Part shown: positions 28,533 to 44,920 of the stretch, one piece after another
How positions within the stretch are numbered: position 1 is the first letter of the stretch
Layout of the letters: each line of letters starts with the position of its first letter
Source of the DNA: an uncultured Acidobacteriota bacterium
GTDB lineage: Bacteria; Acidobacteriota; Thermoanaerobaculia; UBA5066
DNA length: 64,000 bases
Assembly: GCA_963779415.1 (NCBI GenBank)
Contig: CAVZYA010000002.1
Span: 1,568,001-1,632,000, forward strand
Direction of reading: 5' to 3'
The notes under the pieces: model-generated
Database searches by the model: none
What the model was told of the DNA's origin: nothing
Seen by the model: only the letters and a program-made list of their open reading frames with translations
Position numbers and translations under genes: made by a program

Positions 28533-29309
28533 ATGAATCATGTCGTCTGCATCGCATACGTCCCGGACACCGAAACGAAGATCAAGATCGGAGCGGACGG
28601 AAAGTCGATCGACGAGGCCGACGTCAAGTGGATCGTCTCGCCGTACGACGAGTACGCGCTGGAAGAGGCTCTGAAGACGAAGGAGGCGAAGGGGGGGACG
28701 GTCACGGTCGTGACGTACGGCCCGGCCCGCGCCGACGCGGGGCTGCGCGAGTGCCTGGCCCGCGGCGCCGACGAGGCGATCCGGATCGCGTCCGAGGGGA
28801 CGGGCGAGATCGACTCGCTGGGTGTCGCCCAGATCCTCGCGGGGGCCGTCAAGGCGCTGCCGCACGACATCGTCTGGATGGGGAACAAGGGGGTCGGCAC
28901 CGACGCCCAGCTCCTCGTCCCGATGGTGGCCGAGCTTCTGGACCTGCCGCACGTCTCCCCCGTGATGAAGCTGGAGTGGGGAGACGGCAAGATCACCGCG
29001 AAGCGCGAGATCGAGGGGGCGACCGAGGTCGTCGAGGCGCCGCTCCCCGTCGTTCTCGGCGCGCAGAAGGGGCTGAACGAGCCGCGCTACGCCTCGCTGA
29101 AGGGGATCATGGCGGCCAAGAAGAAGACGATCGCCGTCAAGCAGCCCGCGGACGTCGGGTACGTCCCGGCCGCGGGGGGCGCCGTGACCTGGACGAAGCT
29201 GGAGCTTCCCGCCGCGCGCGGCGCCGTGAAGCTGATCCCCGCCGACGATCCGAACAAAGCCGCGGAAGAACTCCTCAGGCTGCTGAGAGACGAAGCGAAG
29301 GTGCTGTGA
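28533..29309 (+). CDS. etfB: Electron transfer flavoprotein beta subunit
   Basis: VPDTE, PYDEYALEEA, NEPRYASLKGIMAAKKK. Confidence 0.95.
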   Translation: MNHVVCIAYVPDTETKIKIGADGKSIDEADVKWIVSPYDEYALEEALKTKEAKGGTVTVVTYGPARADAGLRECLARGADEAIRIASEGTGEIDSLGVAQILAGAVKALPHDIVWMGNKGVGTDAQLLVPMVAELLDLPHVSPVMKLEWGDGKITAKREIEGATEVVEAPLPVVLGAQKGLNEPRYASLKGIMAAKKKTIAVKQPADVGYVPAAGGAVTWTKLELPAARGAVKLIPADDPNKAAEELLRLLRDEAKVL

Positions 29310-30289
29310 TGAGTAACGTTCTCGTCTTCATCGAACAGCGCGACGGAAAGATCCGCAAGGCCTCTCTCGAGGCGCTGACCCTGGGGCGGACGCTCGCCGG
29401 CAAGACCGGCGGGACGGTGGCCGCCTGCGTGGCCGGCTCCGGCATCGGCACCCTCGCCCCCGAGCTGGCGGCCTACGGCGCCGCGAAGGTCTTCGTGGCC
29501 GACGCGCCCGAGCTTCAGCTCTTCTCCTGCGAGGGGTACACGGCCGCGCTCGACGCGGCGGTTTCGGCCTTCAGTCCCTCGATCCTCCTCGTCTCCGCCA
29601 CGACGATGGGGAAGGACCTCGCCCCGCGACTCGCCGCGCGGCGAAAGGTGGGGGTCCTCTCCGACGTGATGACGCTCGACGTGGAGGGGGGCCATCTCGT
29701 CGGGACGCGACCGGTCTACTCGGGCAAGGCGCGCGCGACGGTGACCCCGGCCGCGGGAGCGGCGCTTCAGATCGCGACGCCCCGTCCGAACGTCTTCCCG
29801 GCCTCGAAGGCTCCCTCGCCCGGCGCGGGCGAGGTCGTCGCGGTCTCCGCCGCCGGGGCGAAGATCCGGGCGAAGGTCGTGAAGGTGGAGGCCGCCGAGG
29901 CCGGCGAGCTGGACGTGGCCGAGGCCGACAAGATCGTCTCCGGGGGGCGCGGCATCAAGGGGCCGGAAAACTGGCCGGTCCTGCGCGCGCTCTGCCACGA
30001 GCTGGGCGCGGCGCTCGGCGCCTCTCGTGCCGCCGTGGACGCGGGGTGGATCGACCACTCGCACCAGGTCGGCCAGACCGGGAAGGTCGTCTCGCCGTCG
30101 CTCTACATCGCCTGCGGCATCTCGGGGGCCATCCAGCACCTCGCCGGGATGGGCTCCTCGAAGGTGATCGTCGCCATCAACAAGGACCCGGAAGCCCCCA
30201 TCTTCAAGGCGGCCACGTACGGCGTCGTCGCGGACCTCTTCCAGATCGTCCCGGCGATGACCGAGGCAGCCAAGAAGATGAAGGCGTAA
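29309..30289 (+). CDS. etfA: Electron transfer flavoprotein alpha subunit
   Basis: [30 protein letters not shown]. Confidence 0.95.
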
Positions 30290-30296
30290 TCCGTAA

Positions 30297-32378
30297 ATGA
30301 CGCTGACGCCGACTCAGGCCCTCTACTTCGGCGTTCCGGGGAACGTCCTCTTCGCGGTCGTCCTCGCCGCCACGGTCGTCTTTTTCCTCGTCACGGCCTC
30401 GCGGCGGGTGCAGCTGCTCCTGATCGGTGCCGGGGCGCCGGACGACCGCTTCGACCGTCCCTTCCGGCGGCTCTGGCACGTCGTCGAATATGGAATCCTC
30501 CAACGGAAGATGTGGCGAGACCCCTACGCGGGGCTCTACCACATCCTCATCTTCTCGGGCTTCGTCGTCCTCACGGTCCGAACGACGTCGCTCGTCCTCG
30601 AGGGGCTCAGCCCGTCGGCGGCGCTTCCGTTCCTCTCGACGGGCTTCTGGGAGGCGTACCTCCTCCTGAAAGACGTCGTCCTCGTGACGACGCTCGCCGG
30701 GGTCCTTCTCGCCTTAGGGCGGCGGCACCTCTTCCGAAAGGAACGTCTCGACCCGTCGTTCGACGCCGACCTGATTCTTCTTCTGATCGCCCTCCTGATG
30801 GTGACCGATCTGACGGCGGGCGCGGCGAGGGATGCCCTTTCGCCGGCGAATGTGCCGGGATGGGAACCCCTGACTTTCTTCCTTTCTAAGAATCTTTCGG
30901 GGTATTCCTCCTCTTTCCTTCAGGCCGTCTATTTCTCCTCCTGGTGGATCCATCTCCTGGCGATCTTCTTCTTCCTGAACTACCTCCCCTTCGCGAAGCA
31001 CTTCCACGTCATCACGGCCCTCCCGAACCTCTTTTTCGCGAAGCTCGACGCGCCGGGGAAGATGTCGACCGTCGACATCGAGAAGGCGGCGGAGGCCGGG
31101 GTCTTCGGCGTCTCGAAGATCGAGGACTTCAGCTGGAAGCAGAAGCTGGACATCTTCACCTGCACGGAGTGCGGGCGATGCCGCGAGAACTGCCCGACGC
31201 ACCTGACCGGAAAGCCGCTCACGCCGAAGGGCTTCACCGTGGATCTCCGCCACGCGCTCTACACGGACGCTCCGGCCCTCCTCGACGCGGCCACGGGCTT
31301 TGCGGGCGGGAAGAAGGCGAAGGATCTCGAGGAGCGGAAGGCCCTCATCGGCGGCTGGATCTCCGAAGAGACGATCTGGGCCTGCACGACCTGCCGCTAC
31401 TGCGAGCACGCCTGTCCAGTCGGGATCACGTACGTCGACAAGATCACGGACCTCCGGCGGCATCTCGTCCTCGAGCGGAGCGAGTTTCCGAAGGAGGCGC
31501 AGACCGCCTTCAACGGGATGGAGCGGCAGGGGAACCCGTGGAACCTCGCGGCAGCCGATCGTGGCGCCTGGGTGAAGGAGCTGCCGTTCCCCGTCCTGAC
31601 GATGGCCGAGGCGGGCGCCTCCGGCGTCGAAGTGCTCTTCTGGGTCGGCTGCGCGGGCTCGTACGAGGACCGCGGGAAGAAGGTCTCGCGCGCCCTCGCG
31701 ACGCTGCTCCACGAGGCGGGAGTGACCTTCGCGATCCTCGGATCCGAGGAGACCTGCACCGGCGACGCGGCGCGGCGGCTGGGGAACGAGTACCTCTTCC
31801 AGACGCTCGCGCAGCAGAACGTCGGGACGCTGAACGGCTACGGCGTGAAGAAGATCGTCACGAACTGCCCCCACTGCTTCAACACGCTCTCGCGCGAGTA
31901 CCCGGATTTCGGCGGCCGCTTCGAGGTGGTGCACGGCACCGAGCTGGTGGCGAAGCTGATCGAGGAGGGGCGCCTCGACTTTTCGACGCGGATCGAGAAG
32001 ACGATCTCCTTCCACGACCCCTGCTATCTCGGCCGGCACAACGACGTCTACGACGCGCCGCGCGCCGTCCTCTCGGCGATTCCCGGCCTCGCGCTGAAGG
32101 AGCTGCCGCGGAGCCGCGACGCGGCCGTCTGCTGCGGCGCCGGAGGCGGGCGGATGTGGCTGGACGAGAAGATCGGAACCCGGATCAACCAGATGCGCTT
32201 CGCGGAGATCGAGGCGTGCGGGACCGAGGCGGTCGGGGTCTCCTGCCCCTTCTGCATGGTGATGGTCGCGAACGCGAAAACGGAGCTTTCGGGGACGACG
32301 GAGCCGTTCGACATCCTCGAGCTTGCGGCGTCCGCCCTCCCGGCGCGAGGAGAGAAGGGGACTTCCGGCCCGACGTGA
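30297..32378 (+). CDS. Membrane Fe-S oxidoreductase, FadF/EMO-like (NarI-like TM, 2x4Fe-4S, CCG domains)
   Basis: CTECGRC...[33 protein letters not shown]. Confidence 0.9.
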
Positions 32379-32818: not shown

Positions 32819-34140
32819 TCAGAAGCGGAAGGTCAACCCCAGAAGGCCGCGGAACTGCCGTGACGTATCGTCCCGGATCTGCTCCGCCGTCATGAAGAGC
32901 GAAAAGGGGCGGGAGATGTTCACGACGCCCGAGAGCGCGTACCGCTTCGAGTGCGGGTGGCTCTGGACCACGAGGCCGTCGGCCGTCGTCATGCTGAGGG
33001 TCGAGAGCGACGTCGTGTAGTCGAGCGTCAGATAGACCTTCGGGCCGAGGTTCCGGCCGATCGAGGCGTAGAGCGAGTCGTAGGCGCCGCTCGACGGCTG
33101 GTTGTAGCGGTTGTCGCTCGCCGTCAGGTCGAGGCCCGACCCGAAGACGTTCATCGCGGAGATTCCGGCCTAACACCTCGGGTAGGTCCGCCGACCAGGC
33201 TGCTCTGTTCCTGCGAGTAGCCGCCCCAGATCCGGAGGTTGCGGAGCGGCTCGATCGTCACGCGGCCGCCGAGGGATCCGTAGAGGAACCCCTGGAGGGC
33301 CTGGGGGTCGACCGGCCTCCCGTTGAGGACGTCCTGCGCGATCGAGCGCGTGTCGATGGAGGTGCCGTGGTGATAGAGCCCCTGGAACTCGAGCCACGGC
33401 GTGGCCCGGTAGCGCGCGTTGACGAAGATGTAGGTCAGCTTCGCGCCCCCGCCGCTGCCGGCCGGTCCCGTCGTGTCGATCTCGGCGGCCTGATAGAGGA
33501 AGAAGTCCCTGCCGACGGGGATGAAGTTCAGCATGGTGATGACGACGCTCGGTCACGGTCTGGTCCCGGATCTGGACGTAGCCGATGACGTTCTTCCACC
33601 CGTTCTCGCCGTCGAGGGCGACGTAGCCGCCGTACTTCTTGACGCCGCTGACGTAGCCGACCTGATAGAGATCGGGCTCCATGCCGCCGAAGAGGCCGAG
33701 GCGAACGCGCCAGGGCCCCGTGGAGCCGAAGGGCTGCGCCTCGAGGTTGAAGCCGCCGACGGAGCCGAGACCGCCGATGTCGTTCAGCCACATCTGCCCG
33801 ACGCGGAGACCGACGCTCCCGCCGCTCACGTGCCCTCCGACCCAGGCGTTGAAGAGCTGAGGCGGTTGGGCTGTCCGTTGACGGAGGGGTACGCGGCGCC
33901 GCGCGCGTCGAGGCCGTACTCGAATCCGCCGTCGTCCGCCGGCTTCGACACGAGGGAGACGTAGGCCGAGGTCTCGCTGAACGTCGAGCTCGGGCCGCCG
34001 CCGGTCAGGGAGGTCTGCTGGTAGCTCCCGAAGAGGGTGACCTGCCCGTACCCGGACTGCGACTGGGCCCCGGAGCGCGACGCGGAGCCGGCCGCGGCCA
34101 GGAGGAGCGCGAGGAAGACGAGTCGGCGTCTCCCCGTCAT
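32819..34140 (-). CDS. Outer-membrane beta-barrel (porin), 3 frameshifts
   Basis: Signal peptide; amphipathic Y/G-rich strands; C-terminus LGLTFRF; ATGA overlap with the cytochrome stop. Confidence 0.7.
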
Positions 34141-37100
34141 CAGCCGCCGCGCCCCGTCGGGTGGCAGGAGTAGCAGGCCTGCGACTGGTAGACGTAGCCG
34201 GCCCGGCCCTGGTGCTGCTGGGCGGTTTGGGCCTGCCCATGACACGTCAGGCAGGTGAAGACGGCGTAGTTCGACGGATTCGTATGGCAGTTGGCACAGA
34301 CCCCGCCGGCGGAGCCGTGGTTCGTGGGGAACCAGGTGTGGTTGAAGACCGCCTGAAGCCACGAGGTGTCCGAGAACTTGTGACAGGTGTCGCAGGTCGT
34401 CGGGAAGGCGGCGGCAACGTGGTTCACCGGGGTGGTGGCGGTGTTGTAGTCCCTCAGATGGCAGGCGGAGCACGGGCTCGTGGGCACGCTGGTGAAGTTG
34501 TTGGCGCTGGGGGCGTACGGCGGGTTGTGGCACTGGCTGCAGGGCGCGGTCGCGTGCGCGCCGGCGAGCGCGAAGTACGTCGAATGGTTGAAGGCCGTCG
34601 CGAGCAGCCAGGTCGGCGTCCGTGTTCTTGTGGCAGCTGTCGCACGTCGTCGGCAGACCGGCGTGGTTCACGGGTGTCGCGGCGGTGGCGAAGTCCCGCA
34701 TGGTGGCAGCCGAAGCAGGTCGTCGGGACGGCGGAGTAGTTGTTGGCGGACGGGGCGTACGGCGGGTTGTGGCACGTCGGCGCACGCCGTCGTGGCGTGG
34801 ACGCCGACGAGCGGGAAGGTCGTGTGGCTGAACGTCGCCGGCGAGCCAGGTCGCATCGGAGAACTTGTGGCATGTGTCGCAGGTCGTCGGGAAGCGCGAC
34901 GCGATGTGGTTCACCGGCGTCTTGGCGTTGTTGTAGTCCTTCAGATGGCAGGCCGAGCACGGGCTCGTGGGCACGCTGGTGAAGTTGTTGGCGCTGGGTG
35001 CGTACGGCGGGTTGTGGCACTGGCGCAGGGCGCGGTCGCGTGCGCGCCGGCGAGCGGCGAAGTACGTCGCAATGGTTGAAGGCCGTCGCGAGCAGCCAGG
35101 TCGCGTCCGTGTTCTTGTGGCAGCTGTCGCACGTCGTCGGCAGACCGGCGTGGTTCACGGGCGTCGCGGCGGTGGTGAAGTCCCGCAGGTGGCAGCCGAA
35201 GCAGGTCGTCGGGACGGTCGGAGTAGTTGTTGGCGGACGGGGCGTACGGCGGGTTGTGGCACGTGGCGCAGGCCGTCGTGGCGTGGACCCCGACGAGCGG
35301 GAAGGTCGTGTGGCTGAACGTCGCCGGCGAGCCAGGTCGCATCGGAGAACTTGTGGCATGTGTCGCAGGTCGTCGGGAAGCGCGGCGGCCACGTGGTTCA
35401 CGGGCGTCGTGGCGGTGTTGTAGTCCTGCTGGTGGCAGGCCGAGCACGGGCTCGTGGGCACGGTGGCGAAGTTGTTCGCGCTGGGGGCATAGGGCGGGTT
35501 GTGGCACTGGGCGCACGGCGGCCGTAGCGTGCGCGCCCGCCAGCGCGAAGTACGTGTAGTGGTTGAAGGCCGTCGCGAGCGACCAGGTGGCGTCCGTGTT
35601 CTTGTGGCAGCTGTCGCACGTCGTCGGCAGACCGGCGTGGTTCACGGGGGTCGCGGCGGTGGCGAAGTCAGGCTGAGTGGCAGCCGAAACACGTCGTCGG
35701 GACGGTGGAGTAGTTGTTGGCGCTCGGGGCGTACGGCGGGTTGTGGCACGTGGCGCACGCCGTCGTGGCGTGGACCCCGACGAGCGGGAAGGTCGTGTGG
35801 CTGAACGTCGCGGCGAGCCAGGTTGCATCGGAGAACTTGTGACATGTGTCGCAGGTCGTCGGGAAGGCGGCGGTCACGTGGTTCACCGGCGTCGTGGCGG
35901 TGTTGTAGTCCTGCTGGTGGCAGGCGGAGCAGGGGCTGGTGGGCACGGTCGCGTAGTTGCCGCTCTTGTGGCAGTTGGCGCACGCGGTCGTCACGTGCGT
36001 TCCCGCCAGCGGGAAATACGTGGAATGGTTGAATGTCGACTGTGACCTGCCACGTCGCGTCGGCGAAGGCGTGGCAGGTCTCGCAGGTCGTCGCGAAGCC
36101 GGCATGGCTCACGGGCGTCGTGGCGCCCGTGGAAGTCGGTCATGATGGCAGGCGGAGCAGGGGCTGGTGGGGACGGTCGTGTAGTTGCCGTTCTTGTGGC
36201 AGTTGGCACACGCCGTCGTGACGTGCGTTCCGGCCAGCGGGAAGTACGCGGAGTGGTTGAAGGGCGACTTCACCTGCCAGGTCGCGTCGGCGAAGGCGTG
36301 GCAGGAGTCGCAGGTCGTCGGGAAGCCGGCGTGGTTCACGGGGGTCGTGGCCCCCTGGAAATCCGTCTGATGACAGGCCGAGCAGGGAGTCGTCGGGACG
36401 GTCGTGTAGTTGCCGCCCTTGTGGCAGTTGGCGCACGCCGTCGTCACGTGCGTTCCCGCGAGCGGGAAGTACGTGGTGTGGTTGAAGGGCGACTTCGCCT
36501 GCCAGGTCATGTCGGAAAAGGCGTGGCAGCTCTCGCATGTCGTCGGGAAGCCGGCGTGGCTCACGGGCGTCGTGGCGCTCTGGAAGTCGGTCAGGTGGCA
36601 GGCCGAACACGGGCTCTTGGGGACGGTCGTGTAGTTCCCCCCCTTGTGGCAGTTGGCACAGGGCGTCGTGAGGTGTGCTCCCGAGAGTGGGAAGACGGCG
36701 TGGGACGTGAACGTTCCCTGCTGCCATGTGGCGTCGGAGTACTTGTGGCAGGTCTCGCACGTCGTCGGGAAGCCGGCGGCCACGTGAGGCGGATTGGTGG
36801 AGTTCTGGAAGTCGGCCATGTGACAGGCCGAGCAGGGGTTCATCGGGACGGTCGTGTAGTTGCCGCTCTTGTGGCAGTTGGCGCACGCCGTCGTCACGTG
36901 CGTCCCCGCAAGCGTGAAGTACGCGGAGTGATTGAAGGTCGACTTCTGCTGCCACGTGGAATCGGTGAAGGCGTGGCAGGTGTCGCAGGCCGTCGGGAAG
37001 CCGGCATGGTTCACGGGAGCCGTGGCGCCCTGGAAATCGGTCAGGTGGCAGGTGTAGCAGTCGCGGGGAGTCCCCTTGTAGACACCCCCCTTGTGGCAGC

Positions 37101-39811
37101 TGGCGCAGGGCGTCGTCGCATGCACGCCGGCCAGCGCGAACGTAGAGTGAACGAAGGTCCCCTGCATCCAGGTGGCATCCGCGAACTTGTGGCAGGTCTC
37201 GCACGCCGTCGGGAAACCGGCGGCGACGTGGTTCACGGGAGTCGTGGCGGTCAGGTAGTCCTGCTGGTGGCAGGCGGCGCAGGGGCTTGTCGGAATGGTC
37301 GTGTAGTTGCCGTTCTTGTGGCAGTTGGCGCAAGGGGTCGTGGCGTGGGCGCCGGCGAGCGGAAAGACCGTCGCGTGATTGAAGGTCGCCATCATCCACG
37401 TGGCGTCGGAGGACTTTGTGGCAGGTGTCGCAGGTGGTCGGGAAACCGGCGGCGACGTGATCGGGATTCTTCGCTCCCTGGTAGTCCTTCGCGTGACATG
37501 AGTAGCAGTCGGTCGGGGCCCCCGAGAAGACGTTGTTCTTGTGGCACTGGTTGCAGCCGGAGCGTCGCGTGCGCGCCATTGAGCGCGAAGCCGGTCTGGG
37601 CTCCGTGGTTCCAGAGAACCGCCGTCCACGAGGTCGGCCGGTGGCACTGAGCGCAGTCGCTCCCGAGGGCCGTCCGGTAGAGGTCGTCCTGACGCCGGAT
37701 CCAGTGGCAGTCGTAGCAGGTGTTCGGGGTCCCCTTGTAGACGCCGTTCCAGTGGCACGAGGCGCAGGGGACGGCGAGATGCTGCCCTTCGAGCGGGAAT
37801 TCGATCGACTTGTGAAAGGCCCGAGTTCGCCGTCTTCCAGAGAGACATGTCGTGGCACGACGCGCAGTCGCTTCCCAGCTTGCCCCGATGCGGGTCGTCG
37901 TGGCAGCGCTGGCAGTCGGAGGTCGCGAGGCCGGTGAACTTCACGGCCGTCCCCGTGCCCGCCGGGAACGACCCCTCCACTTTCCTGTGGCAGAGGCGGC
38001 ACTCCGCCGTCGCGTGCTTGTCGACGAAGAACCCCTTCGTCGCCGGGTTCTGGTGCCGGTAGCTCTTCACCTCGAACGTGGCCGTCGTGTGACAGGTCTG
38101 GCAGGAGGTTCCCAGCTGGCCGAGGTGGACGTCCTTGTGGCAGCCGGCGCAGTCGGACGGGGAGCCCCTTCAGGCGGATGGCCGTGCCGCTGCCGGCCGG
38201 GAAGGTGCCGGTCTCCTTCCTGTGGCACTTCCCGCAGTCGAGCCCGACGTGCTTTCCGGTCAGGGGGTATTTCGTCGTCGAAGTGGTCGAAGCGGAAGGG
38301 ACGGCGAACTTCGCGACGTCGACCTTGTGGCAGCTGGCGCAGTTCGTGCCGACCTGCCCGAGATGCGGGTCCTTGTGGCAGGTCGCGCAGTCGAGGGGGA
38401 TCCCCTTGAACTTCCGGACCGGGACGGTCCGGCCGGCTCCGAGGGAGACGGAGCCCGCCGCGGCGTCGGCGCCGTGACACTTCTGGCAGGAGACCGTCGC
38501 GTGCTCGCCGCCGAAGAACTCGGGAAAGCGGGGGTGCCGGTAGGTCGTGACCGCGAAGGTAGCGGCGGTGTGGCACGTCTCGCACGTCGTTCCGAGCTGT
38601 CCCTTGTGAGCATCGACGTGGCAGGAGGAGCAGAGAGGACGCGCCCCGCGGAAGTCCACCGTCCGTCTCGCGGGAGAGAGCGCCGGCCTGCGGAGCCGCC
38701 CCCTTGTGACACGCGGCGCAGGCGAGCGGAGCGTGCTTGCCGGCCAGCGGGAACTTCGTCTTTGCGTGGTCGAAGGTCCCTCCCTTAAAGCCGGTCTCCT
38801 TGTGGCACGCACTGCAGTCCTGCGGCTTGAAGATCCCCGCGTGCGGGTCCTTGTGGCAGTCGGCACAACGTGCGTACTTCAGGTGGACCTTGGTCGCGGG
38901 CTGGACGTGACAGGAGGCGCAGGGGAAGCGCCGCGTGACGACCGACGAGGGCGTAGCCGGTCTTCGCATGGTCGAACTTCACGGGGGGGGTCGCCGCACC
39001 GGGCACACCCGCCGCAGCCCCGGCTCCCGCCGCGGCGGCAGCCGCTGCGCCCGATCCTCCGGCCATCCGGAAGGTCGCGGTCGTGTGGCAGGTGGAGCAG
39101 GCGCCGAGGGGCTTCGCGTGCGGGTCCTTGTGACAGTCGACGCAGGACGCGAACTTGATCCCCTTCCAGACGTTCGCCACGTGACACTTCTCGCAGGGGG
39201 TCGCGACGTGGGCGCCGGTCAGCGGATAGGACGTCTTCGAGTGGTCGAAGACCTTCCGGGTCTCCTTGAAGGCGACGGAGACGGGGTGGCAGGTCGCGCA
39301 GGAGGTGCCGAGCACCCCCTTGTGCGGATCGGCATGACACCCGGCGCAATCGGGCTTCGCCGTCAGGAATGACCGGGTCTTGTGGCACTTCGCGCAGTCG
39401 AGCCCCTTGTGCTTCCCGTCGAGGGGAAAGCCGGTTTCGCCCGCGTGATCGAACGTCGCCGTATTCAGCCGGCGGGTGTCGGTGTCGACCCCCGCGTGCT
39501 CGACATGGCAGGAGACGCAGTCCTTCGCCGCGTCGCGGTGGACTCCCTTCCGGGCGGCGATCCGCTCGGCGATCGGCTTGTGACATTCGAGGCACTTCGC
39601 CGTCGTCACGCGCTTGCCGGGCTCGTGGCACTTCTGGCAGTTCTCGAGGCCTTCCAGCCTGGCGTGTGCCACGGGAGAGGGGCCCGGGCGAGACGAGAGA
39701 GCCGAGCCCCTGCGCCGAGCCCGTCCGGGCGAAGCCGACGAGCGCGAGCAGGGCGAGAGCTGCCGCGGGCGCGAGAGGCGAGCGGCCGGGTCTTTTGCAG
39801 AGCTCGCTCAG
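34140..39811 (-). CDS. Giant multiheme cytochrome c (about 72 CxxCH, about 1880 aa), many frameshifts
   Basis: Signal peptide then SPGPLS..HARLEG..NCQKCH; continuous FxH-FPLxGxH-CxxCH modules across shifting frames; start codon unclear. Confidence 0.85.
34375..35865. repeat. Intragenic tandem repeat, about 486-bp unit x3
   Basis: GAACTTGTG(G/A)CA.GTGTCGCAGGTCGTCGGGAAG recurs at about 34374, 34861, 35347 and 35833. Confidence 0.85.
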
Positions 39812-39826
39812 TCAGGGCCTCTCTCT

Positions 39827-40681
39827 TCAGAAGTGCAGGGAGTAACCCATGTAGATGGCGAGGGCGACGTGGACGGCGGCGATGGCGAACATGACGTAGA
39901 CGAGGGGCTTGTGGAAGACGTGCCACAGATCGAATAGCTTCTTCGTCCGGCCGAGGTTGGCCATCCGACGGACGAGGAGCGAGCGCTCGGCGTCGAGGGC
40001 GGCGACCTCCTCGTCCATCGCGTGCGAGCCGCCTGCCAGAAGCGAGGCCTTCTCGGCGCGCCGCTTGAGGTCGTCGATCCGTTCGTGGATCTCGTCGAGG
40101 GAGAGCTCCGTTCCCGGATCGATCGGGGAATCCGGACGTAAAGGTAGCGGCCGACGAAGCCCGAAAGGACGACGAGGACCATCGACCAGTAGGCGACGGA
40201 AATGATCCCGTTGAACTTGAAGGAGGTGTGGAGGGTGATCAGCGCGGGACCGACGACGCCGCAGAAGATGTGGAAGTCGAGCCACCGCCTGGTCGAACCG
40301 CGACGGACGAGGGACGGGACTTTCTTCCGGATGACGTAGGGAAGGGTCAGGAGCATGAGCCCCGCGCCGGTGATTCCGAAGAGGAGCCCCGCCGTTCCGG
40401 AGGGGCGCAGGAGCCGGTGCGCTTTCTCCTGCGCCGCGGAGGGAGAGCGGCGTCGCATAGTAACGAAGGCCCCCGAGGCCGAAGAAGGCGAGTCCTCCGA
40501 GGAGCACGACGACGACAGTGACCAGGACGAGGACATGTCCGAAGGGGGATGGCGGGATCCGGCCTGTCGGCTTCGGGTCCGAAGCTGTCTTCGAAGATTC
40601 GTGCGCCTGGTCACCGGGCGACATCCGTGTGACGGGCGTCACGGAAGCCGACGTCCGGGACATCGCGGCCGTCGTTCTCAT
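39827..40681 (-). CDS. His-rich membrane protein (possible heme b, ferric-reductase-like), frameshifted
   Basis: WLDFHIFCG, TLHTSFK, WHVFHKPL, AAVHVA in TM helices. Confidence 0.7.
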   Translation of the reverse strand: MRTTAAMSRTSASVTPVTRMSPGDQAHESSKTASDPKPTGRIPPSPFGHVLVLVTVVVVLLGGLAFFGLGGLRYYATPLSLRGAGESAPAPAPLRNGGAPLRNHRRGAHAPDPSLRHPEESPVPRPSRFDQAVARLPHLLRRRRSRADHPPHLLQVQRDHFRRLLVDGPRRPFGLRRPLPLRPDSPIDPGTELSLDEIHERIDDLKRRAEKASLLAGGSHAMDEEVAALDAERSLLVRRMANLGRTKKLFDLWHVFHKPLVYVMFAIAAVHVALAIYMGYSLHF

Positions 40682-40801
40682 ACAACCCTACCGGATACAC
40701 CCTTCCAGGCTCGACAATTCCGAATCCCCCCCCTGGACTTCAGACTTGTTCGTTCCGGGGCTCCGCCCGGGTTTTTTAGAAGTGGCGGAGCGACTCGGAT
40801 C

Positions 40802-42051
40802 TCACGCTTCGATCGTGCAGTTGGTCCGGGCCCAGGCGACGCAGGGGTAGATGTAACCGCCGTCACGGTCCTGCTCGTCCAGTACGGGGGCGTCACAAGC
40901 GACGTCGCCTTCGACGACCCGGGTCCGGCACGACTGGCAGACGCCCGCCCGGCAGGAGAAGGGGATTTGGCGCCCCCCGCTTCGGCGGCCTCGAGGATCG
41001 TCCTCCCGGGGGGGATGCGGACGGTCCGGCCGGTGATGGCCAGCCGCAGGTCGACGGGCTCCGTGGCCCCGGCCGGAGCCGAGGCCGAGGCGACGGCGGC
41101 TTCGAACGCCTCCGCGCGCACTTGCCTGTCGGGGACGCCGAGGGAGGCGAGAAGCTCCTTCATCCCGTCGATCATCGGAAGGGGCCCGCAGATGCAGTAG
41201 ACGGCGGTGGAGGGAAGTCCGGTCAGGCGCCGGATCAGCTCTCCGTCGACGCGCCCGCGATGGAGGCCGGGACCTCCTTCACCTCTCGTCACGGCGACGA
41301 CGACGCGGGCTCCCGGATGGCGCCGGGTGAATGTCAGCAGCTCGTCCCGGAAAGGGACGTCGGCCTCGGTCCGTACCGAGAGGACGAGCGTGACCTTTCG
41401 CTCCGGCTCGGCAGAGGCGGCGTGGCGCAGCATGCTGATGAGCGGGGTGATCCCGACGCCGCCGGCGAGGAGGACGAGCGGTCGCGGGTCTCCGGCGGGA
41501 TAGACGAATGGGCCGGCGGGCTTGCGGACGCGGAGGAAGGAGCCTCGCCGGGCCTTCTCGTGGAGAGCGCCCGAGACCAGCCCCTGCCGCTTCACGGAGA
41601 TCTCCAGAAAGTCGCGGCTCTCCGGGGCCGAGCAGATGGAATAGCAGCGGACCAGCGGTTTTCCGTCCACGGGGAGCTGGACCGTCAGGAACTGTCCGGG
41701 CTTGAATTCGAAACCCTTCGGGCGCCGAAGCCGGAAAGTCCGGATGTCCTCGGTCTGATCGACGGTGCCGAGAACCTTCGCCTCGACCCAGCCCGGCTGC
41801 AGGGGAAGGGGAGGAGGGAAGGCCTTCTCGCACGCCCCGAACCAGAGAAGGTGGGCGACGAAGAGGGCGGCGAGGCCGCCGTACGTCGGGAAGATCCAGG
41901 GGAGAGCGGCGACGGCGAAGCCGGGAAGGGCCCAGAGCGAAAAGCGGTGTGGCCAGCTCCGGTGGCGGCGCAGCATCGCCAGCGCGACGTGGACCGTCGA
42001 GGCCGCGGCGAGAAGGGCCGAGGAAACCGGGACCGTCAGCACGAGAGGCAC
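40802..42051 (-). CDS. FAD/NAD-binding oxidoreductase with C-terminal 2Fe-2S and N-terminal TMs, frameshifted near the 3' end
   Basis: RCYSICS, AGGVGITP, CGP; SCRAGVCQSC and YPCVA in shifted frames. Confidence 0.85.
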
Positions 42052-42845: not shown

Positions 42846-44920
42846 GCGTGCGGGGTGGGATGCTGGGGCGTTACCGCCTCGGGGCGCTCCTCGGGCGCGG
42901 CGGGATGGCCGAAGTCTACCGGGCCGAGGACACGCGGCTCGGCCGACCGGTGGCGGTGAAGGTGATCCTTTCCGACCACGCCGCCGATCCGGGCTTCGTG
43001 GAGAGGTTCCTTCGCGAAGCGCGGCTCGTGGCCTCGCTCGAGCATCCGAACATCCTCCCGGTCTACGACTTCGGCGAGGAGGAGGACGCCCCTATCTCGT
43101 GATGCCGCTCCTCGACGGCGGGACCCTTCGCGACCGGATCGAGGGCGGGCCGGTGCCCTCGCGAAGGCGTCGGTCTGGATCTCGCAGCTCGCGGGCGCTC
43201 TCGACGCGGCGCACGAGGCCGGCATCCTGCACCGCGACGTCAAGCCCGCGAACGTCCTCGTCGGAAGAGGGGAGCGCGTCTTTCTCGGGGACTTCGGCAT
43301 CGCGAAGATGCTGGAGACGATCACGGGCCTCACGGCGACCGGAATGGTGATGGGGACGCCGGTCTACATGGCTCCCGAGCAGGCGCAGGGGCGGCCGGCG
43401 ACGCCCGCGACGGACCGGACTCCCTCGCCGTCGTCGCGTACGAGATGCTCGCGGGAAGGCCGCCGTTCGAAGGGGAGAGCCCGCTCTCGCTGATGCACCA
43501 GCACGTGGCATCGCCCGCTCCGGCGCTCTCGACGAGGGGTCCGGGCCTTCCCCGCGGCCTCGACGCGGTCTTCGCGCGGGCCCTTTCGAAAGAGCCGGCC
43601 GAGAGGCACGCCACCTCCGAAGAGTTCGCGGCCGCCGTCGAGGCCTTCGCGCCGACGGGCGCGACCGGTCCCTTCGAGCCTGCGATTCCCTCCGCGACCG
43701 CGCCGACGATCCGTGCGCCGGGGCGCCTCCGCTCCGTGACGACGCCGCCGTCGAGCCTGACGAGCGACGAGACAATCGTCACGGGAAGGGGGACGAGAAA
43801 GAAGAAGCCGCGGCGTGGCCTTCTCGCGGGCCTGGGATTCGCGGCGGCGCTTTCGGGAGGATTTCTACTTCTGAGGGGGAAGGAAAACGCCCTCCCATCC
43901 GGGGCCGGTGCTGAACAGAAGGCCACCTCCGTCCATGCGGCAACGCCGGAAGATTCTTCGAGAGTGAGAGAGCCCCGGATCGCTGCCTCGCCTCCGCCGT
44001 CGAACGCTTCAGCGCTGCCCGCATCCGATTTACTTTCCGGGAAATCTCCGGTGGTTCCCCCTTCTTCCGACGCCGAAGAGAAGAAGATCGCCGAGCTGGA
44101 AGCGCGGCTGAAGAAGGCGGAAAAGGAGATCGCCGAGGAGTCCGGTGCCGCGAGGTCGATCGTCCCGGCGTCGCCACCGGCGCCGGCGAGCGTGCCGGTC
44201 GCCTCCGAGCCCCCGGCGGAGAACGTGCCGAAGAACGCCGGCCTGCGCGGACTCCGTCCCGCCTTCGAGCGGCTCGATCCGTCGAAGAAGCCGGACGCGC
44301 GGCTTTCGCAGGCGGACTTCGAGTTTGCGGTGGAAAGCGCGCGCCGCGCCTGAAGGGGGATCCCGACCTCCGGGCGGCGCGTTTTCTGGAGATCCTCGGC
44401 AGCGGCGGTCTCGGTCTTACGTCGCTCGTCGCGACGGCGCGGCCTCCCAGGCGGTGCTGGAGGCCTTCGCGTACTCGAAGCGGGTGACGCAGAAGGACAT
44501 CGGTCACCTCGCCTTCCTCGTCCGCAGGCGGGGCGGGGCGATCGTCGCGCCGACGGGGTGGGAGCTTTCGCTCGCCTACGGGGACGCACGGGGGAAGCCG
44601 AGGGGCTTCTCGCCGAGGCGCTCGCGGTACGGCCGAACGATCCGAGGGCGCTTCTCGGCCGGGCCTACCTCCGTCGGATCCAGGGGCGAATGTCCGAGTC
44701 GATTGCCGATCTCCGGCACGCAGTCCAGGCGAACCCGACGCCCGTGGTTCGGCAGGGAGTCCTCGAGGTCCTTCGGACGGAGTGCCGCAGCGGAGTGGCG
44801 GAGGCCTGCGCGGAGGCCGAAAGGATGGCCGCGGCCGCTCCCGAAAGCCCGCGCCGCCGCCTACCCGCCGCGAAAGGGACCGACCCTCCGCGGCTTGACA
44901 CCGCGCGGACCCTCCTCTAG
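42842..44920 (+). CDS. Ser/Thr protein kinase with TM and TPR-like C-terminus, several frameshifts
   Basis: [34 protein letters not shown]. Confidence 0.8.

Follow-up and report, generated by a model that had tools for sequence, protein, structure and literature searches.

The window analysed here is a stretch of 64,000 nucleotides (contig CAVZYA010000002.1) from a 4.36-Mb genome in three contigs, with a GC content of 68%, of an uncultured bacterium of the phylum Acidobacteriota, class Thermoanaerobaculia. Four genes lie on its reverse strand between positions 32819 and 42051, in the order reductase, membrane protein, multiheme cytochrome and beta-barrel (Table 1), and the cluster resembles the porin–cytochrome conduits known as PCC3. 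An initial annotation, made from the letters alone, had described four co-oriented genes for a transmembrane-anchored FAD/NAD/2Fe-2S reductase, a membrane protein with His residues in several transmembrane helices, an exported cytochrome with about 72 CxxCH motifs, a few of them broken by indels, and a beta-barrel ending in Phe. All four were recovered, and each description agreed with the evidence set out below. Source names among the homologues were Thermoanaerobaculia, Holophagales and Acidobacteria bacteria.

Table 1. Features of the four-gene cluster, in window coordinates.
Feature	Position	Strand	Basis
Membrane-anchored FNR-type (FAD/NAD(P)H) reductase, C-terminal [2Fe-2S]	40802..42051	-	Pfam, orthologue comparison
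PCC3/PCC4-type inner-membrane protein, predicted di-heme cytochrome b	39827..40681	-	Four His, motifs, helical model
Cytochrome N-terminal part, 24 hemes	37830..39811	-	Motif count, orthologue junction, composition
Cytochrome C-terminal part, 48 hemes	34140..37829	-	Alignment, unfused relatives, conservation profile
Outer-membrane beta-barrel, ~22 strands, C-terminal Phe	32819..34140	-	Orthologue model, alignment to G003

The four gene products

The reductase open reading frame (ORF) of the window matched Pfam FAD_binding_6 and NAD_binding_1 above the cut-off. The 2Fe-2S part lies behind a frameshift at ~40968, with the real stop near 40802 rather than at 40678; an intact orthologue carries the Fer2 domain, and the window copy is 55% identical to an intact orthologue. 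The domain order is that of Hcr and PaaE, which were also the best NCBIfam matches, both below the cut-off, and the N terminus forms an anchor of two to three helices. This anchor (window 41830-42051, reverse strand) matches no family, and His17 and Trp67 (numbering of the G012 protein) are invariant in 56 of 56 distinct anchors. An ESM Atlas search with the anchor returned nothing usable, and the spacer between the reductase and membrane-protein genes held no conserved regulatory motif in 13 loci.

The membrane protein, whose start was taken as the ATG aligned to that of G007, has five predicted transmembrane helices, two WX3HX13H motifs and an SGXXG motif, and both His motifs were present in 100 of 100 aligned homologues. 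The four motif His residues are encoded at 40272, 40230, 39913 and 39871 of the window and were all kept on alignment. They form two HX12-14H pairs on helices 3 and 5, as in the ferric reductase domain PF01794, and 39 of the 100 homologues matched Ferric_reduct weakly (best E 1e-4). Two b hemes are predicted, and by the positive-inside rule one His pair would face each side of the membrane. A structural model was helical (predicted local distance difference test, pLDDT, 85.8), with the expected helices and a cytoplasmic helical domain. Fold searches placed b561-type chains at Z 6.2-6.7 amid unrelated rows, fold and profile searches together gave no clear solved relative, and an ESM Atlas search returned unnamed clusters only.

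The cytochrome gene carries 70 intact CxxCH motifs spread over three frames (34175-39639, reverse strand), and two more are broken by indels. A recount by frameshift-aware alignment to the unbroken 72-heme ORF of a genome from the same genus (G003) gave exactly 72: identity was 71%, all 72 Cys, Cys, His triplets were kept, and there were 22 frameshifts and no stops. In G111 the cytochrome is again one unbroken ORF, of 1869 amino acids and 72 hemes. The relatives therefore hold a single gene, rather than the several small ones that the initial annotation had named as an outcome against its reading. This is by far the largest CxxCH cluster of the genome, the runner-up having 15; 17 further clusters of 4-15 motifs are found across the same genome.

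By eye, the cytochrome begins with a signal peptide, and the fused chain has this one signal peptide and no lipobox. A CTG at 39811 is the probable start, and a probable CTG start is seen in two genomes of the genus (window 39809-39811, reverse strand, and L002 near 1370). The CTG was considered as a lesion and rejected, since G007 apparently uses CTG too.

The chain consists of 24 and 48 hemes on the two sides of a junction. The N-terminal 24-heme part is rich in Lys and Arg, and the C-terminal part in Thr, Ser and Asn (combined fraction up to 0.3). The C-terminal 48 hemes open with a conserved module at the junction (hemes 25-27), continue in tandem repeats of three hemes and close with a cap that is conserved as well. 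Eight of 10 full-length orthologues have 24 hemes before the junction and the other two have 21 and 6, while 17-48 hemes follow it, a multiple of three in seven of the 10. The total in relatives runs from 35 to 77, in steps mostly of three, and two intact orthologues use 24.6-25.5 amino acids per heme. Among 49 strict matches in a search with the junction, 43 were fused and six unfused; six metagenome loci encode the cytochrome by two genes, of which the second has a signal peptide of its own, and a separate 24-heme gene is present in L152 and L199-L201. This comparison of relatives shows that the single cytochrome gene was formed by fusion of a 24-heme chain with a second, variable chain. Sequence identity outside Cys and His, calculated over 16 proteins, peaks at hemes 1-3 (0.62), hemes 25-27 (0.63) and the last three hemes (0.54), against 0.36-0.53 elsewhere, and the peaks may mark where the chain touches the membrane protein, the barrel and the acceptor, respectively. 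An intact 54-heme orthologue scored 40 bits against TIGR03508, the decaheme DmsE family, whose cut-off is 192.

The start codon of the barrel gene overlaps the stop of the cytochrome gene. The encoded protein ends in Phe and is 77% identical to the barrel of G003. An orthologue was modelled as a barrel at pLDDT 90, with 22 long strands by manual count of DSSP elements, so that the barrel prediction, whose failure would have counted against the initial annotation, holds. The best fold matches were 22-stranded TonB-receptor barrels (Z 17.9), with MtrB at Z 14.2; no sequence relative was found in the PDB, and the Foldseek matches were generic barrels. Some homologues carry N-terminal AMIN domains (1-3 copies) or SPOR domains (P0258, P0254 and P0244). 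AMIN and SPOR domains bind peptidoglycan, in keeping with an outer-membrane location of the barrel.

Frameshifts in the window copy

The 9.2 kb of the cluster hold 28 frameshifts: one in the reductase, two in the membrane protein (~40432 and ~40116), 22 in the cytochrome and three in the barrel. The density, ~3 per kb, is ~15 times the background of 0.14-0.21, which was counted as isolated single-base indels (0.21 per kb over 224 kb aligned to G003; 34 insertions and 13 deletions). In addition, the barrel gene has one in-frame TAG, at 33170-33172, where G003 has CAG. The enrichment and the in-frame TAG weaken a simple account by sequence error. One interpretation, which we consider unlikely, is that the operon is truly decaying in this organism, with real breaks in this copy alone and the family elsewhere unaffected. 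Decay would be in keeping with the clean state of the flanking electron transfer flavoprotein (ETF) and CCG-domain genes, and with erosion of the module in genus-mates, among them G002, whose cytochrome has 16 frame changes.

Note, however, that in the window cytochrome none of the 216 heme-motif residues was lost and no stop interrupts 5.7 kb. Of its 22 breaks, 21 are +1 insertions, a bias in the same direction as that seen genome-wide, and only eight of the 21 extra bases repeat a neighbour. Breaks were also found in 21 of 158 control genes of the same genome, and the error-rich patch continues into an unrelated kinase gene on the opposite strand (42860 onward), which has three frame changes in 760 nt; other window genes with a homologue showed no clear breaks. 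The affected region looks like a poorly covered patch of ~12 kb, and a local defect of the assembly is the probable source of the 28 frameshifts.

Frame changes in the cytochrome were also seen in eight of 22 other genome loci. Among the best 12 matches listed, relatives' contigs showed single-base indel differences at several of the sites broken in the window (33188, 35058, 35071, 35221-2 and 37412), which speaks for error. Three DNA runs sharing only 6-9% of words, with no RNA run listed beside them, corresponded to relatives' contigs and provided neither polishing of this genome nor a habitat name, and rough pN/pS values were saturated and gave no usable signal.

Synteny and exchange of the partner enzyme

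The initial annotation had proposed a search for four-gene synteny, and 12 genome loci carried all four genes on a single contig in the same arrangement, their cytochromes having 35-77 hemes (in L036 the anchor lies beyond the contig end). In an evenly drawn sample of 201 genomes of the class, 30 had the barrel, 22 a close orthologue of the membrane protein (21 of them at E<1e-70, the other being the genome's own broken copy) and 23 the reductase anchor. Each of the 22 had anchor and barrel as well, and in 21 the anchor adjoins the membrane gene on one contig. Metagenome loci, taken as the best 80 of at least 514 confirmed, had the reductase upstream in 44 of 44 cases where 700 nt or more of upstream sequence was present; the cytochrome start lay downstream in 53 of the 56 that extend 600 nt or more on that side. 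The reductase is thus syntenic elsewhere, in class genomes and metagenome loci alike. In a sample of the phylum, the anchor was matched in nine of 401 genomes. Of the four anchor genomes from outside the class, three combine reductase and membrane protein with two separate cytochromes (24 and 21-27 hemes) and a barrel; around the anchor of the fourth, the stretch examined showed none of the other parts. Relatives include intact, compact copies of the four genes, with 48-54 hemes.

In six further loci (L094, L095, L097, L096, L127 and L142) this reductase and membrane protein are accompanied by a cytochrome of only 23 or 10 hemes. Loci of the L094 type continue with 4-heme and 11-heme cytochromes and different outer-membrane candidates, as further conduit variants.

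The enzyme beside the membrane protein is not always of the FNR type. In eight of eight sister clusters within the class, a membrane-anchored 4Fe-4S/TrxB-like flavoprotein stands in its place, together with two cytochromes, a membrane protein 32-41% identical and, in seven of the eight, a candidate barrel ORF. Similarly, 11 of 12 distant paralogues lie directly 3' of a TrxB-like gene with two 4Fe-4S motifs. A tree was calculated for 52 membrane proteins (seven of 59 were left out, both motifs not falling in one ORF) with a midpoint root and with the partner of L025 taken as read. The 31 FNR-partnered proteins formed one branch (support 96/91). The simplest reading of the comparison would be a single swap, in which one NAD(P)H flavoprotein gave way to another, unrelated enzyme, plus a second FNR-cytochrome b pairing by fusion; the direction of the swap hangs on the midpoint root.

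Fusions of flavoprotein and cytochrome b were met in two forms. In G003 (L031:11430-13040), upstream of the 72-heme wire, an FNR enzyme is fused to an FdnI-type cytochrome b561; a b561 with a partial FNR piece is also found in L188 and L126. The second form is an orphan gene (L022:6194-8425, L023 and L065) that joins an anchor, 4Fe-4S, a TrxB/YpdA-like flavoprotein and an HX13H membrane domain, and in the 20-kb stretches examined around it no multiheme cytochrome was found. Taken together, the flavoprotein swap and the cytochrome b fusions point to NAD(P)H as the probable input. The link from NAD(P)H to a heme-b subunit, proposed in the initial annotation, keeps its standing as a prediction and is backed by comparison, as flavoprotein and cytochrome b are paired in three different ways; the bypass of quinones suggested there is an inference.

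A related and common three-gene unit was seen in L166-L176: a TrxB-like flavoprotein with two 4Fe-4S motifs, an HX13H membrane protein and a decaheme cytochrome whose head looks FHA-like by eye. None of these loci showed a barrel. Around the cluster itself, intact genes for ETF beta/alpha and a 4Fe-4S/CCG-domain (FadF-like) protein (window 28533-32378, forward strand) converge on the barrel gene, as they do in G003. A functional link to them was considered and dropped, because among three genus-mates checked they stand beside the barrel only in G003. On the other side lies a Ser/Thr kinase gene with a C-terminal TPR part (window 42860-44920, forward strand) and several frameshifts. Upstream of the wire, genus g4 has ccmB/ccmA-like genes (L030 and L032), and two genomes of genus g39 have a chromate transporter upstream of the cluster (L027 and L044).

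Relation to known conduits, electron source and direction

Clusters of the PCC3 kind, in which a porin goes together with cytochromes of up to 85 hemes and a membrane protein that has two HX13H motifs, were described in 2017 (PMC5566968). The contrast drawn in the initial annotation with conduits of about ten hemes is therefore not supported, and that annotation had missed these published kin. In that account the PCC3 and PCC4 inner-membrane protein has five helices, SGXXG and two WX3HX13H motifs, with two b hemes proposed to exchange with quinone; porins have 22-42 strands; and the outer cytochrome is repeat-rich and Thr/Ser-rich, at 22-39 amino acids per heme (PMC5566968). Periplasmic cytochromes of PCC3 have 21, 24 or 27 hemes (PMC9900912); in the Leptothrix case there are 24, along with a 22-strand porin (PMC5566968). 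The same 2017 paper mentions 'another redox protein', unnamed, beside related membrane proteins. The function of PCC3 is described as experimentally untested (bioRxiv 10.1101/2025.02.27.639646). Still larger counts are on record: an Acidobacteriota genome reaches 112 hemes (PMC11495043), and genomes from peat reach 116 (bioRxiv 10.64898/2026.05.27.727921).

The present cluster shares with PCC3 the porin, a giant repeat-rich cytochrome at ~25 amino acids per heme, the ~300-residue five-helix protein with two WX3HX13H motifs and SGXXG, a barrel within the published strand range, and the 24-heme chain of periplasmic type, here present as an N-terminal domain. This likeness is one of motifs and described architecture. 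In contrast to PCC3, the two cytochromes are fused to one polypeptide, an FNR-2Fe-2S reductase heads the cluster, and the host belongs to the Acidobacteriota rather than the Proteobacteria. Because the second cytochrome is fused and not separately encoded, the locus is a variant of PCC3, not a plain member.

PCC4 and the clusters with 'other multiheme cytochrome' (He 2017, Supplementary Table 6) also combine an HX13H protein, a multiheme cytochrome and a redox protein, and one of them, from Leptothrix, has a porin; however, their cytochromes have 4-18 hemes, and the accessible part of that source proposes no NAD(P)H feed. In the NOX/FRE family and in Fre-MsrQ-MsrP of E. coli, an FNR-family enzyme likewise passes NAD(P)H electrons to a membrane heme-b protein and on to an acceptor on the far side (PMC5676040, PMC12525009), whereas here the enzyme has an extra [2Fe-2S] domain and is anchored in the membrane, electrons would go to a giant c-type wire joined by a barrel, and the homology of the membrane protein to the ferric reductase domain family is weak. 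MtrAB and OmbB-OmaB also place a barrel and a multiheme cytochrome over the outer membrane, as reflected in the MtrB fold match, but here there is no sequence match to solved chains, the barrel is smaller, the cytochrome far longer and the inner-membrane module the cluster's own; MtrAB and MtoAB further differ by their decaheme DmsE-family cytochrome, absent here. Within the phylum, EET1 and EET2 of peat genomes have a porin and multiheme cytochromes, the modelled ones with 8-13 hemes (bioRxiv 10.64898/2026.05.27.727921), and the Thermoanaerobaculum-type cluster has a different gene set, with NHL-repeat and PPIase genes (Flieder 2021, PMC8528874). The literature searched, whose reach into subscription papers and supplements was limited, gave no description of the fused cluster and none of PCC3 being fed by NAD(P)H, and the main text of Garber 2024 (PMC11475568) does not describe the fused cluster. 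In sum, this is a real, conserved cluster whose core architecture and giant heme counts are known; the fusion with a fixed junction and the FNR-2Fe-2S reductase are new.

Our preferred reading, at a probability of about 0.5, is that the locus encodes a PCC3-type conduit with a fused wire, fed by NAD(P)H and working outward. NAD(P)H would reduce FAD and then the [2Fe-2S] cluster at the cytoplasmic face, and two stacked b hemes would carry the electrons over the inner membrane, as in a split NOX/ferric reductase or the Fre-MsrQ pair. Entry to the cytochrome would be at its conserved first three hemes, and the 24-heme part would span the periplasm; the outer membrane would be passed where the junction module sits in the barrel, and the variable repeats would be the way out for electrons to Fe(III), humics or other cells. 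Such outward transfer would be driven by the membrane potential and would spend it, with no protons pumped, and for this reason a redox overflow or reducing tool is likelier than a main respiratory chain. The host genome encodes two heme-copper oxidases and has two NuoF-like loci, as well as genes for cytochrome c maturation and for menaquinone by the futalosine pathway, because of which the conduit would probably be a side outlet.

Several observations weigh against this reading, beginning with the density of frameshifts and the in-frame stop in the window copy. The pairing of reductase and membrane protein is not strict, because G002 and G004, of the same genus, keep reductase, cytochrome and barrel while the membrane gene is gone, and G003, also of this genus, has only a 3' remnant of it. 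Among the 30 genomes with the barrel, eight have neither the reductase anchor nor a close membrane-protein orthologue; four of these have an orphan fused flavoprotein-membrane gene elsewhere and four do not. The FNR pairing counts as one evolutionary event, the kin not being independent. The MtrB barrel has 26 strands; a 22-strand barrel is narrower, and folded hemes would need to pass it.

The orphan fusion occurs mostly in genomes whose wire cluster has lost the membrane gene. A match within a ~750-residue ORF was found elsewhere in G003, G004, G006, G111, G136 and G190, the fusion being checked in G003 and G111, and among 11 sampled genomes of genus g4 the fused ORF was present in three of four with the barrel and in none of seven without it. 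The pattern is suggestive of an orphan gene that replaces the membrane protein in trans, among kin that are not independent.

The remaining points against an NAD(P)H feed are those that would favour a quinol-linked PCC3, in which the membrane protein exchanges with menaquinone and the reductase feeds the quinone pool or is an accessory. In two genomes (G024 and G136) an FdnI-type b561 stands alone upstream of the wire. FdnI-type b561 reduces quinone in formate dehydrogenases. The invariant His of the reductase anchor could be a cofactor or a quinone site, and the NuoF-like loci and menaquinone genes mean that a quinol supply exists in the host. The model of He 2017 (PMC5566968) has the membrane protein exchange with quinone, published descriptions of four-gene PCC3, in their accessible text, are without a reductase, and in G002 and G004 it is the reductase that stays. 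A dedicated flavoprotein would, however, be needless for a quinol-linked system, yet one lies beside the membrane protein in 22/22 class genomes, 44/44 metagenome loci, 8/8 sister clusters and 11/12 paralogue loci, and two forms of its fusion to a cytochrome b occur; for MsrQ, moreover, recent data favour Fre over the quinone pool (PMC12525009). On balance we regard the quinol-linked explanation as doubtful.

A further question concerns how far the wire extends. At an MtrA-like spacing of ~1 nm per heme, taken from ~100 Å for the ten hemes of MtrA (PMC5566968), a straight chain would measure about 24 nm to the junction and about 70 nm overall. It could be that the wire is confined to the periplasm, as a conductor or capacitor charged by NAD(P)H or quinol whose tip docks at the barrel with nothing protruding, and that it stores electrons or reduces soluble acceptors entering through the pore. 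The lone signal peptide without a lipobox would suit such a protein, as would the variation in heme number by steps mostly of three; a capacitor role has been proposed for proteins of this kind (PMC11495043, PMC9900912), and some related clusters pair a 23-heme chain with other outer-membrane genes. Confinement is nevertheless improbable, as the C-terminal part has the low-charge Thr/Ser/Asn composition of the PCC3 cytochromes termed 'extracellular' (PMC5566968), and the internal module with the highest conservation begins after exactly 24 hemes, a distance that at the MtrA-like spacing would be near the width of a periplasm.

Direction was considered as well. An inward conduit, from Fe(II), reduced humics or electrodes to quinone or NAD(P)+, would accord with the presence of PCC3 in iron oxidizers, its expression in Sideroxydans CL21 (PMC5566968, bioRxiv 10.1101/2025.02.27.639646) and the two heme-copper oxidases of the genome. 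By standard bioenergetics, though, a plain di-heme route to NAD(P)+ opposes both the redox gradient and the membrane potential, and the reductase would be left unexplained; we hold inward transfer to be very improbable. Returning to the outward, NAD(P)H-fed conduit, a more specific version can be put forward tentatively: one covalent wire of at most ~77 hemes might run from the cytochrome b through the 22-strand barrel to tens of nm outside, with a quinone-free NAD(P)H feed, a flavoenzyme recruited at least twice from unrelated families and three-heme repeats that tune its outer length, so as to form a NOX-like drain for electrons that spans the entire envelope.

PCC3 conduits are widespread, and with this variant their electron source and direction become testable. 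Because chains termed 'periplasmic' and 'extracellular' are naturally fused here, the outer cytochrome is not simply a separately secreted protein, and the three-heme module at hemes 25-27 is singled out as the likely barrel-crossing segment. If the input is indeed pyridine nucleotide, extracellular electron transfer would be a redox valve and not a respiratory step.

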